A stretch of 40,205 nt of DNA from an uncultured Gammaproteobacteria bacterium (GCA_964640515.1 CAZXFG010000002.1:1-40205); one strand, 5' to 3'; counted from the first letter of the stretch, positions 9,518 through 38,398 are shown. The notes: generated by a model not told the origin, from the letters alone. Numbers and translations: made by a program.

Positions 9518-9541
9518 TTTGTATAGACTAGTCTATACAAA
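9518..9541. repeat. 24-bp perfect palindrome TTTGTATAGACTAGTCTATACAAA, copy 1
   Basis: Exact string match; self-complementary. It lies 85 nt downstream of tRNA-Ala. Confidence 0.95.
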
Positions 9542-9571
9542 TCGCACAGATTCACCACTTTATACACCAAG

Positions 9572-9580
9572 TTATCCACA
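9572..9580 (+). promoter_or_regulatory. Perfect DnaA box TTATCCACA (outside oriC)
   Basis: Exact consensus 9-mer within GTTATCCACAG. It is followed by CTCTATACACAAA, a degenerate half of the 24-bp palindrome. Confidence 0.5.
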
Positions 9581-9625
9581 GCTCTATACACAAAACCACC
9601 CTAAAAGGTGATTTTGACTCAAAAG

Positions 9626-9707: not shown

Positions 9708-9731
9708 TTTGTATAGACTAGTCTATACAAA
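9708..9731. repeat. 24-bp perfect palindrome, copy 2
   Basis: Exact match. It sits in the 56-nt spacer between tRNA-Arg and tRNA-Ala. Confidence 0.95.
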
Positions 9732-36385: not shown

Positions 36386-36413
36386 ATTATACTGTAATAA
36401 AAGATTAAGTCAA
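36386..36413 (-). promoter_or_regulatory. Possible sigma70-like promoter for the dksA-like operon
   Basis: Minus strand reads TTGACT (36413-36408), a 16-nt spacer, then TATAAT (36391-36386), about 24 nt upstream of the ATG. Confidence 0.5.
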
Positions 36414-36428
36414 GAGAAGAATAGGGAT

Positions 36429-36783
36429 AAAAAAAGGGCGAAGAATCAATAAGTATTATTTTAAATTCTCGCCCTTAGCAAACTGCTAGGCGAGCTTCCT
36501 TCCGTCTAGAAAGACGAAAGGCGACAATACACCTAGAGTTAAAATCTCCGACCGCTAGGGGGTAGGGCTCTCGGACCAACCGGCGCAAAAGGCAAGCTGG
36601 TAAAATTGAGAGTTACCCGAGAAGTAGTACGGATTTGCCTTGCCTCCCGCTCATGATTGAAGTTTCCGCTCAAAATTCTTTTTATTTTTTTTGAGCAGTG
36701 GCAAATCCCTCTTCTTCTAGTTCGCAGTTCTAGAGATATACGCCCCATATAGGGGCTTTGAATTGTAGAAGAACATTCTACGC
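36429..36783 (-). ncRNA. Unclassified ~355-nt structured RNA (promoter-to-terminator unit)
   Basis: Bounded by a consensus promoter (36789-36817) and a hairpin plus U7 terminator (36476-36429). The interior is dense in hairpins and has no credible ORF. Confidence 0.6.
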
Positions 36784-36881: not shown

Positions 36882-36905
36882 TTTGTATAGACTAGTCTAT
36901 ACAAA
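36882..36905. repeat. 24-bp perfect palindrome, copy 3 (extends to a 34-bp palindrome, 36877-36910)
   Basis: Exact match. The flanks TAAAA / TTTTA extend the dyad. Confidence 0.95.
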
Positions 36906-36986
36906 TTTTATCTATTTTGTTATTTGGCTACAGTTAGCCAAAATCGTATTAACTTATCCCCTTTTGGATGTGGGTTTTCCACCGAG

Positions 36987-36995
36987 TTATCCACA
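36987..36995 (+). promoter_or_regulatory. Perfect DnaA box TTATCCACA abutting palindrome copy 4
   Basis: GTTATCCACAG is followed directly by TTTGTATAGAC.... Confidence 0.5.
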
Positions 36996-36996
36996 G

Positions 36997-37020
36997 TTTG
37001 TATAGACTAGTCTATACAAA
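36997..37020. repeat. 24-bp perfect palindrome, copy 4
   Basis: Exact match, 115 bp from copy 3. Confidence 0.95.
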
Positions 37021-37121: not shown

Positions 37122-37451
37122 TTACTGAAGATTGAGGATGTTCGCCAAGACTACACAGACAACCGCACTGGCTAAGAACCCCACCATTGCCCAGCCAGTG
37201 GCGGCCTTGCAAAAGTATACACGCTTCTCCCGTTCCTTGGACAGTTTGGTCTGTTTGTAGGCATGCCAGCCATGCTCTCCCGGTTGAAGGAGGTCGGCCA
37301 TGTCAGCTTCGATGGTCATCATGCCAATGATCATTGGTGCACAGACACCCATTGGGATGAGGACGGTAGCGAGTGCGTTATCCGTGAGGAGAAGCACCAC
37401 AGGGCCGGCAGGAGTCAGAAGGACGAAGAACATCACGACGCAGTAAAACAT
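37122..37451 (-). CDS. Small GC-rich membrane protein (orphan)
   Basis: 109 aa from ATG 37451, with GGAGG 6 nt upstream and three hydrophobic helices. The longer track ORF (start 37532) would begin inside its own promoter. Confidence 0.6.
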   Translation of the reverse strand: MFYCVVMFFVLLTPAGPVVLLLTDNALATVLIPMGVCAPMIIGMMTIEADMADLLQPGEHGWHAYKQTKLSKEREKRVYFCKAATGWAMVGFLASAVVCVVLANILNLQ

Positions 37452-37511
37452 TGTAGACCTCCGGTTGTGAAGTTGTGAAACATCATCCCCACACCATGCA
37501 GGGAACAATGA

Positions 37512-37539
37512 ATCATAGCAATAATATGACATCTGTCAA
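37512..37539 (-). promoter_or_regulatory. Sigma70-like promoter for the GC-rich membrane orphan
   Basis: Minus strand reads TTGACA (37539-37534), a 16-nt spacer, then TATGAT (37517-37512). Confidence 0.55.
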
Positions 37540-37663: not shown

Positions 37664-38398
37664 ATGAAAACTACGAATTTAACCGCAACCCTTCAAAATT
37701 TGGGTCTAAACGAGAAAGAAGCCAAAGTATACTTGGCTTGTCTTGAGTTGGGGAGCGCGACAGTGCAAGAAGTGTCCGATAAAGCGGGAGTAAAACGAAC
37801 GAGCGTGTACAACTTTCTTGAAGATATGAAAGCGCGCGGTTTTATTACAGAAGTAAAGCAGGGGAAGAAAATGCTTTTGATTGCTGAAGATCCGCGCGCG
37901 CTTCTTAAAAAAGCGGATGAACAGAAAAAACAACTGGAAGAAATTCTGCCCGAGTTTTTGAGCATTTACAATTTGCCGGGTGAAAAACCGAAAGTGCGGT
38001 TTTATCAAGGTATCGATGGGTTGAAACGAATCTATGAAGACACTCTCAAAGAGGGCGGGGAGATTTATTTAATATCAGACTACGAAAAAATGTTTTCAGC
38101 GATTGAGCCGGATTGGATGTGGCAGTACGCGAAACTACGCGCGGAAGAGGGAATCAAAGCATTTTCCATTTCAAAAGATGGGCCAATGGCGCGGGAAGTT
38201 AAAATAAGAGATAGCGAGCAGTTGCGTGAAACTCGTTTTGTCAAAGATGTTAATTTTGAAACCGAAATCAATATCTATGGCGATAAAGTCGCGTTACTTA
38301 GTTTCCGCAGTCCGTATGCGGGGGTGATTATTGAAGACAGAGCAATTGCGCAAACATTACGATCGATGTGGAAGATAATTTGGAATCAAGCAAAGTAG
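37664..38398 (+). CDS. TrmB family transcriptional regulator
   Basis: N-terminal LQNLGLNEKEAKVYLACLELGSATVQEVSDKAGVKRTSVYNFLEDMKARGFI is the TrmB-type wHTH. The C-terminus is an effector-like domain. Confidence 0.85.
   Translation: MKTTNLTATLQNLGLNEKEAKVYLACLELGSATVQEVSDKAGVKRTSVYNFLEDMKARGFITEVKQGKKMLLIAEDPRALLKKADEQKKQLEEILPEFLSIYNLPGEKPKVRFYQGIDGLKRIYEDTLKEGGEIYLISDYEKMFSAIEPDWMWQYAKLRAEEGIKAFSISKDGPMAREVKIRDSEQLRETRFVKDVNFETEINIYGDKVALLSFRSPYAGVIIEDRAIAQTLRSMWKIIWNQAK

Follow-up and report, generated by a model that had tools for sequence, protein, structure and literature searches.

A large structured RNA family upstream of dksA-like genes in Candidatus Magasanikbacteria, probably transcribed as a gene of its own

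Large bacterial noncoding RNAs with complex folds are rare, and most of those that are understood are ribozymes or core parts of ribonucleoproteins. The raiA motif RNA is reportedly a large noncoding RNA of Firmicutes and Actinobacteria, said to have been reported by Weinberg et al. in 2017 and in later work from the Breaker laboratory. The 6S and Ms1 RNAs bind RNA polymerase; 6S is a rod of ~185 nt with a central bubble, closed by its own ends, which binds RNA polymerase holoenzyme containing sigma-70 and serves as the template of a product RNA. The OLE RNA of Firmicutes is ~600 nt long, lies next to oapA, and assembles into a ribonucleoprotein with proteins encoded by adjacent genes.

The RNA analysed here is found upstream of a dksA-like gene and shares features with each of these systems. 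Like the raiA motif RNA, it is structured, a few hundred nucleotides long, and was recognized by comparison with its function unknown at discovery; both usually lie just upstream of one gene on the same strand, with a terminator of their own and as a separate transcript. It gave no match to the raiA motif RNA, although that family is in Rfam, and the phylum, the neighbour (dksA instead of raiA), and the architecture differ. With 6S and Ms1 it has in common a stand-alone layout, a strong sigma-70-type promoter, and, as far as the promoter suggests, abundance; it also adjoins the gene of an RNA polymerase regulator and is similar in size to Ms1 (~300 nt). Unlike 6S, it is multi-branched with unpaired ends and a median length of 333 nt, and RF00013 did not match. 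The promoter, the junction-type fold, the intrinsic terminator, and the co-oriented, specific gene downstream recall terminating riboswitches and T-box leaders, but dksA has its own conserved promoter, an antiterminator is not clearly supported, other genes are inserted in between, the T-box sequence is absent, and no riboswitch family matches. OLE RNA is likewise lineage-restricted, large, and supported by covariation, and the fixed gene neighbours of both suggest a ribonucleoprotein partner encoded next door; OLE is larger, however, occurs in another phylum beside oapA, and gave no Rfam match in this analysis, and DksA as a partner is speculative. RNase P RNA has a similar length, several domains, a long-range helix, and GNRA-capped hairpins, and its CPR forms may score below Rfam thresholds (PMC8172020); in the dksA-linked RNA, the conserved regions of the RNase P P4 helix and the P1 pairing of the ends are absent, and the helices follow another order.

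Gene anatomy and family

The window, which is the whole stretch of DNA that was analysed (40,205 nt), was assigned to Candidatus Magasanikbacteria (Patescibacteria/CPR) from groundwater via DksA homologs and near-identical contigs. Bins that carry the locus are often titled 'uncultured Gammaproteobacteria bacterium' in public records (L015, L018, L020, L022, and others), and one (L064) is titled 'Candidatus Udaeobacter sp.'; titles of this kind suggest mislabelling or mis-binning. The main features of the locus are as follows.

36817-36789, minus strand: promoter of the RNA gene, TTGACA, 17 nt, TATAAT, a 12/12 sigma-70 match
36429-36783, minus strand: predicted noncoding RNA transcript of ~350 nt, both ends inferred from consensus motifs
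36476-36429, minus strand: terminator P7, a long G+C-based hairpin, AAGGGCGAGAAU...AUUCUUCGCCCUU, then U7
36429-36476, minus strand: stem sequence of P7, AAGGGCGA GAAUU AAUAA / UUAUU GAUUC UCGCCCUU, then U7
36386-36413, minus strand: dksA promoter, TTGACT, 16 nt, TATAAT, an 11/12 match between the terminator and the dksA start codon
35973-36362, minus strand: dksA-like gene encoding a TraR/DksA C4 zinc finger protein of 129 aa

The promoter of the RNA and the terminator with its U7 tract had both been proposed in the original prediction and were present; the promoter was the best among nine promoter-like sites of the region. The RNA start was placed ~7 nt past the -10 element and the RNA end at the U-tract. 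The minimum free energy (MFE) of the window RNA was -128.1 kcal/mol, compared with -93.9 +/- 5.0 kcal/mol for dinucleotide shuffles (z = -6.86), and 0/100 shuffles were as stable. The dksA-like gene is followed by lspA and then by a yifB/comM-type ATPase gene (Pfam PF01258, PF01252, and PF01078 in these genes). On the other side, the upstream neighbour of the RNA in the window is a gene for a 136-aa predicted membrane protein without a Pfam family (37122-37532, minus strand), and a TrmB-family regulator gene (37664-38398, plus strand) is divergent from it.

For the comparative analysis, 80 species-level Magasanikbacteria genome loci were collected around DksA homologs. Iterative nhmmer with the window RNA as the seed gave an RNA homolog in 54 of the 80, in every case upstream of dksA and on its strand (54/54), mostly 60-270 nt away. 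Covariance model R2, built on the P5 core, found the window as well as each of the 54 (E<3e-6; zero false positives) and gave three additional weaker matches; weak nhmmer matches at the same position were obtained in 13 further loci. Family length ranges from 282 to 421 nt with a median of 333 nt. Metagenome contigs were also scanned with a degenerate RNA motif, and the 120 resulting loci were divided into 34 true members and 86 chance matches. Among the true members, dksA follows on the same strand in 23 and is missing within 1.3 kb in 2, and the remaining 9 are truncated where the contig stops, so that dksA lies downstream in 23/25 copies with enough 3' sequence to be informative. More than 85 family sequences were collected in all, and as far as sampled the family appears restricted to Candidatus Magasanikbacteria.

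The gene upstream of the RNA varies widely among species in family and strand, and the membrane-protein gene of the window is not kept there in other species. Since the upstream neighbour is variable and dksA constant, the conserved unit is the RNA plus dksA.

About 14 loci that were undetected by the searches, being missed by both the family profile and the P5 model, nevertheless have a strong promoter, 400-430 nt, a T-run, a second promoter, and then dksA.

About -700 to -100 relative to dksA: diverged-layout loci L017, L025, L028, L045, L056, L060, L066, and L072
About -700 to -100 relative to dksA: further diverged-layout loci L076, L079, L080, L084, L086, and L090

In some of these, the GTTCWTT motif is present together with a weakly similar terminator hairpin. 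Because the promoter, T-run, and promoter layout is kept, a diverged form of the RNA is probably there, and these loci likely represent a longer subtype of the dksA-linked RNA.

Conserved fold

The fold was examined with a 56-sequence MAFFT alignment (A2), in which six helices comprising 27 pairs were tested against shuffled partners. The 27 pairs were 92.1% paired compared with 82.5% after shuffling, with 190 double-change cells compared with 60, and on each of five measures for this set the observed value was attained by 0/500 shuffles. Pairing fell to 34-52% when the partner was slid by 1-3 columns. Folding z-scores per domain were negative in nearly all of 55 species, with medians from -2.3 to -4.6. 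The unconstrained MFE fold of the window RNA includes every helix supported by the family, and the 5' and 3' ends are unpaired in both the MFE and the family fold. The elements upstream of P7 are listed below in transcript order, except that the two strands of P3 are given together.

36765-36781, minus strand: H1, the 5'-terminal hairpin GUAG(AA)/(UU)CUAC, with the GUUCWUU motif in its loop
36742-36756, minus strand: H2, a variable hairpin, GCCCC-UAUAU-GGGGC, in the MFE fold of the window
36724-36737, minus strand: 5' strand of P3, AUCUCU..ACUGC, identified by covariation
36544-36555, minus strand: 3' strand of P3, GCGGU.GGAGAU, closing the three-way junction P3/P4/P5
36620-36718, minus strand: P4, a long irregular hairpin with an A-rich apex, AGAAG/CUUCU, GGAUUUGCC/GGCAAAUCC, and CUGCUCAAAA/UUUUGAGCGG
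36560-36618, minus strand: P5 domain, GGGUA/UACCC, CUCUC/GAGAG, a conserved AAUU, and a variable inner hairpin
36481-36540, minus strand: P6 domain, outer helix AACU.CUAGGUG/CGCCUAG.AGUU and capped hairpin CCUUUCGUCU-UUCU-AGACGGAAGG, holding the conserved CUCGCC

Most of the hairpins that had been read from the single sequence (GUAGAA/UUCUAC, GCCCC/GGGGC, GCUCAAAA/UUUUGAGC, GGAUUUGCC/GGCAAAUCC, and CCUUUCGUCU/AGACGGAAGG) were recovered in the MFE fold. Two more, UCUAG/CUAGA and UAGCA/UGCUA, occur in the window as described but are not conserved, their bases being used otherwise in P3 and P6a.

By inspection of the alignment, the H1 stem varies with pairing kept (GUAG/CUAC, GUUG/CAAC, and GUGA/UCAC), and its loop is kept as GUUCAUU or GUUCUUU in most aligned sequences. 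At the position of H2, relatives have a hairpin of other sequence, or none in some; the median z-score of the 5' region was -2.3. The two core strands of P3, ACUGC and GCGGU, are ~170 nt apart and 96% paired, with G-C 39, A-U 8, and G-U 6 at one position. They are extended by 5-9 variable, compensating pairs, which gives a long-range helix of ~12 bp. The mean duplex energy of this extension was -7.9 kcal/mol for native partners and -4.1 kcal/mol for permuted partners, and -6 kcal/mol or below was reached by 80% of the native compared with 19% of the permuted duplexes. Two other long-range pairings were considered and rejected: that of ACUGC with a 3' CAGU, since CAGU pairs with the P6a 5' strand (UAGUUUAG/CUAAACUA in L068) and ACUGC with GCGGU, and a helix of the linker that follows GCGGU with the tail that precedes the terminator, to which the P3 extension was preferred.

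The architecture of P4 is common to the per-species folds (median z -4.0, with 95% of species below -2), and the P4b and P4c columns are 85% paired with double changes at 7/7 pairs. P5 folds alike in all species and was recovered by model R2 in all family members; P5a is 95.5% and P5b 93.8% paired, with CG/UA/UG exchanges, and the P5 of the family fold has CCCC/GGGG beside GGGUA/UACCC. In the terminator, the P7 stem is 92.8% paired with double changes at 7/7 pairs (at one pair AU 22, GC 22, and CG 6), its median z-score is -4.6, and in 54/55 sequences it is followed by a run of four or more T.

The strands of P6 were misaligned by MAFFT, and RNAalifold returned no structure on the MAFFT alignments of this domain; covariance models were therefore used for P6. 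As aligned by model R1, the outer helix shows 75% pairing, one of its positions has five pair types, and its variants include UAGUUUAG/CUAAACUA (L068), GUCUACG/CGUAGAC, and AUACUA/UAGUAU. The capped hairpin is 93% paired in the same alignment, with a GNRA apical loop in 17/40 sequences, and the middle helix as drawn is only 50% paired. P6a, the outer helix, covaries strongly, and P6d covaries as well. In about half of the species, an alternative partner for the 5' strand of this outer helix lies just downstream (alignment A5, by inspection), as in CUGUCA/UGACAG, GUCAAC/GUUGGC, and AUCUGC/GUAGAU. These pairings would be mutually exclusive with the long-range P6a helix and could represent a co-transcriptional folding intermediate or a conformational switch.

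Transcription unit and alternative readings

The comparative sequence evidence indicates that this is a real and new family of large structured noncoding RNA. It is called new because no described family matches it; noncoding RNAs of this general kind, structured and stand-alone, are familiar. Judged from sequence, the RNA has its own promoter, its own terminator, no conserved open reading frame (ORF), and a covarying structure. All homologous loci (54/54) have an RNA promoter that matches at 10/12 positions or more, and 52 match at 11/12 or more. Its place just upstream of H1, its TTGACA-like element, and its 17-nt spacer are constant, and only 4/204 control windows contain a match of at least 10/12. 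A second promoter of at least 10/12 follows the terminator directly upstream of dksA in 51/54 species, and it stays beside dksA even where genes have been inserted after the RNA. Such insertions were found in at least 6 species, in the form of unrelated ORFs that lie past the RNA terminator and ahead of the dksA promoter.

Between the RNA terminator and dksA, RNA strand: insertion loci L037, L051, L057, L071, L062, and L064

The inserted ORFs are 76-183 aa long and mutually unrelated, one of them encoding a membrane protein, and all lie on the strand of the RNA and dksA (7/7). Genes seem to insert preferentially in the gap that separates the RNA from dksA.

Separate promoters for the RNA and for dksA, the inserted genes, the covarying terminator, and the result for the antiterminator given below all favour an independent transcription unit. 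We consider it rather probable that the locus holds a stand-alone, independently transcribed structured noncoding RNA gene of ~330-355 nt, the first described of a Magasanikbacteria family. A stand-alone RNA was one of two readings that the original prediction had offered, and it gained support from the conservation, the covariation, the lack of a known family, and the non-coding nature of the ORF. The homologs upstream of dksA-like genes that it had suggested looking for were conserved with covariation in more than 54 species.

The other reading was that of a very long leader of the dksA-lspA-yifB operon, that is, a cis-acting riboswitch or protein-dependent attenuator. The junction would then be the sensor, P6 and the terminator would form the expression platform, and read-through would raise dksA expression. 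Consistent with this reading are the constant same-strand adjacency to dksA (54/54 genome loci and 23/25 metagenome copies) beside a varying upstream flank, and the order of junction domain, helix, and terminator, which resembles that of riboswitches. The alternative pairing of the P6a 5' strand, seen by inspection in about half of the sequences, hints at strand exchange. The switch itself had been proposed to operate through CUCGCC (36494-36489), located in the window together with its proposed partner GGCGAG (36473-36468) in the 5' strand of the terminator. CUCGCC lies inside P6, where its own partner helix was not consistently recovered. Complementarity of 6-9 bp to the 5' strand of the terminator occurs in about half of the sequences and is strong in some clades, with compensatory cases in L039, L061, and the L068 clade, but the L014 and L032 clades have almost none. 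Across the family, the CUCGCC/GGCGAG pairing was 69.4% compared with 66.6% in shuffles (8/500), and the covariation score was reached by 41/500 shuffles. The mutually exclusive antiterminator and terminator folds gained no clear support, with 69% compared with 67% paired in shuffles and no significant covariation.

A leader is further opposed by the near-consensus promoter that 51/54 species have past the terminator and ahead of dksA, a position that would bypass any switch, by the unrelated genes that separate the RNA from dksA, and by a terminator that is long, strong, and conserved, its loop included. Species-specific complementarity between the RNA and the region of the dksA translation start was not found (native compared with permuted, p = 0.41-0.55), and antisense pairing with that region was rejected on the same comparison, as native equalled permuted. 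A leader function is unlikely on this evidence. A residual role in cis, or some coupling of the RNA with dksA, is possible from the tight same-strand linkage, and read-through could matter since the inserted genes are all on the same strand.

A stand-alone RNA could also be a housekeeping RNA (RNase P RNA, tmRNA, SRP RNA, or 6S) so diverged in CPR bacteria that Rfam misses it. The length of 282-421 nt would fit RNase P RNA or tmRNA, the consensus promoter suggests abundance, and canonical 6S is unreported for the host group in the literature searched. CPR RNase P RNAs are diverged and known to fall below Rfam thresholds (PMC8172020), so the defining motifs were also checked directly.

Rfam 15 at gathering thresholds gave only tRNAs in the window and 18 homologous loci, which agrees with the original designation of the RNA as unclassified. 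Scans at E<=10 (851, 371, and 366 nt), which list matches down to ~12 bits, gave only noise-level matches, among them Oskar, SAM-II at 18 bits, and miRNA models. Models for RNase P, tmRNA, SRP, 6S, T-box, and riboswitches were absent at E<=10 from the window RNA and a distant member, and no housekeeping match was obtained at E<=10 for two distant members.

The motif counts agreed with Rfam, and with the original prediction, that the hallmarks of RNase P, tmRNA, SRP, and T-box are lacking. RNase P CR-I (GGAAAGUCC, <=1 mismatch) occurred in 4/56 sequences and GAAAGUC in 2/56, with no conserved position, and CR-V (ACAGAA..GGCUUA, <=2 mismatches) in 1/56, not at a conserved position. P1-type pairing of the RNA ends was absent in the MFE and family folds. 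ARAGORN found no tmRNA in the window and 0 tmRNA or tRNA in the 56 family sequences, and the tmRNA T-loop motif (T-arm GGUUCGAnUCC) was present in 2-3/56 only. The SRP helix-8 motif GGAAGCAG (<=1 mismatch) occurred in 7/56 at non-homologous places, and the SRP-like GGAAGGAAGC of the window is private to its species (the window and its strain variant, 2/56). A 6S-type rod closed by both ends was not found, the RNA being multi-branched (H1, H2, junction, P6, and P7), and RF00013 (6S) was without a match at gathering thresholds or E<=10. The T-box motif occurred in 1/56 with no Rfam match, and the downstream gene is dksA and not an aminoacyl-tRNA synthetase or amino-acid gene.

The defining motifs are thus found in at most 7/56 sequences, and the ends are unpaired, where RNase P P1, the tmRNA acceptor, and the 6S closing stem need pairing. 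The invariant blocks ACUGC, ACUUCUU, GGUAAC, UACC, and AAGCGGU match none of the RNase P, tmRNA, SRP, and 6S families. A diverged housekeeping RNA is therefore very improbable. The RNA also had no match by blastn against phage and plasmid collections, and a literature search on structured RNAs of CPR and Magasanikbacteria, 6S, and dksA-associated motifs gave no description of a dksA-linked RNA.

The reading of the region as a gene for a 69-aa Arg-rich protein, to which the conservation would belong, is effectively refuted: the ATG-initiated ORF without a Shine-Dalgarno sequence exists on the RNA strand (36539-36748), as had been noted, but it has no Pfam family and is not conserved, the longest same-strand ORF in the 56 homologs being 15-91 aa (median ~35), the alignment is rich in indels that are not multiples of three, and conservation tracks base pairs and not codons.

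Possible function and neighbouring repeats

In the proposed scheme for a stand-alone RNA, the near-consensus sigma-70 promoter would start the transcript at H1 with its GUUCWUU loop. The body would form a three-way junction in which the ~12-bp P3 closes the P4 rod and P5, followed by P6 as a second domain with a capped, often GNRA, hairpin, and the P7 intrinsic-terminator hairpin with its U-tract would end the transcript. Directly downstream, dksA would be transcribed from its own promoter. The sequence comparison shows the anatomy of the gene, its conservation, the fold, and a dksA promoter that is independent of the RNA. The RNA would act in trans, not as an mRNA leader, as an abundant, folded, and most likely protein-bound molecule. 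Abundance is suggested by the consensus promoter, and compact folding by the GNRA cap, the conserved junction nucleotides, and the long-range helix.

The RNA is almost never found apart from dksA while its upstream neighbour is free to change, which suggests that its function is probably tied to DksA or RNA polymerase. The DksA-like product has retained the acidic, coiled-coil-tip-like motif FPDYGDKDDENAAE, which shows little or no variation among 32 homologs, and we take this to fit a factor of the RNA polymerase secondary channel. The RNA might bind or titrate RNA polymerase or DksA as a functional analogue of 6S and Ms1. This role is the preferred, weakly supported hypothesis for an RNA that is structurally unrelated to 6S and Ms1, and, as the fold is unlike that of 6S, the proposed link to RNA polymerase or DksA is drawn from gene neighbourhood. 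A more far-reaching proposal, that the RNA represents a new class of large tertiary-structured RNA specific to a CPR phylum and working with the DksA-like protein or RNA polymerase, is tentative and rather unlikely. It would imply an RNA cofactor or decoy replacing circuitry of the 6S/ppGpp type that is missing or altered in reduced genomes, or alternatively a new ribonucleoprotein or ribozyme with its partner encoded next door.

No regulatory RNA was described for Patescibacteria in the literature searched. Most of the sampled members of this uncultured CPR phylum have the dksA-linked RNA, with a consensus promoter in front of it and the gene of an RNA polymerase regulator beside it, and it offers a testable way into the transcription control and RNA biology of Patescibacteria. 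A family ready for Rfam (>85 sequences with a covariation-supported structure) would improve annotation, and the spurious 69-aa ORF would not be called.

A perfect 24-bp palindrome, TTTGTATAGACTAGTCTATACAAA, occurs four times in the window with 0 expected (9518-9541, 9708-9731, 36882-36905, and 36997-37020) and was detected in no contigs other than those of the same species, L001-L010. One pair of copies flanks tRNA-Ala and comes after tRNA-Arg, and the second pair is located in the interval from the RNA promoter to the membrane-protein gene upstream. Possible roles are those of a terminator or insulator acting in both directions, or of a repeat of the REP/MITE type associated with stable-RNA genes. 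Beside the palindromes is a repeated CTGTGGATAACT(Y)GGTG (~9565-9585 and ~36975-36996), which holds a perfect DnaA-box-like TTATCCACA on the other strand, and dnaN is only ~6 kb away in related contigs.
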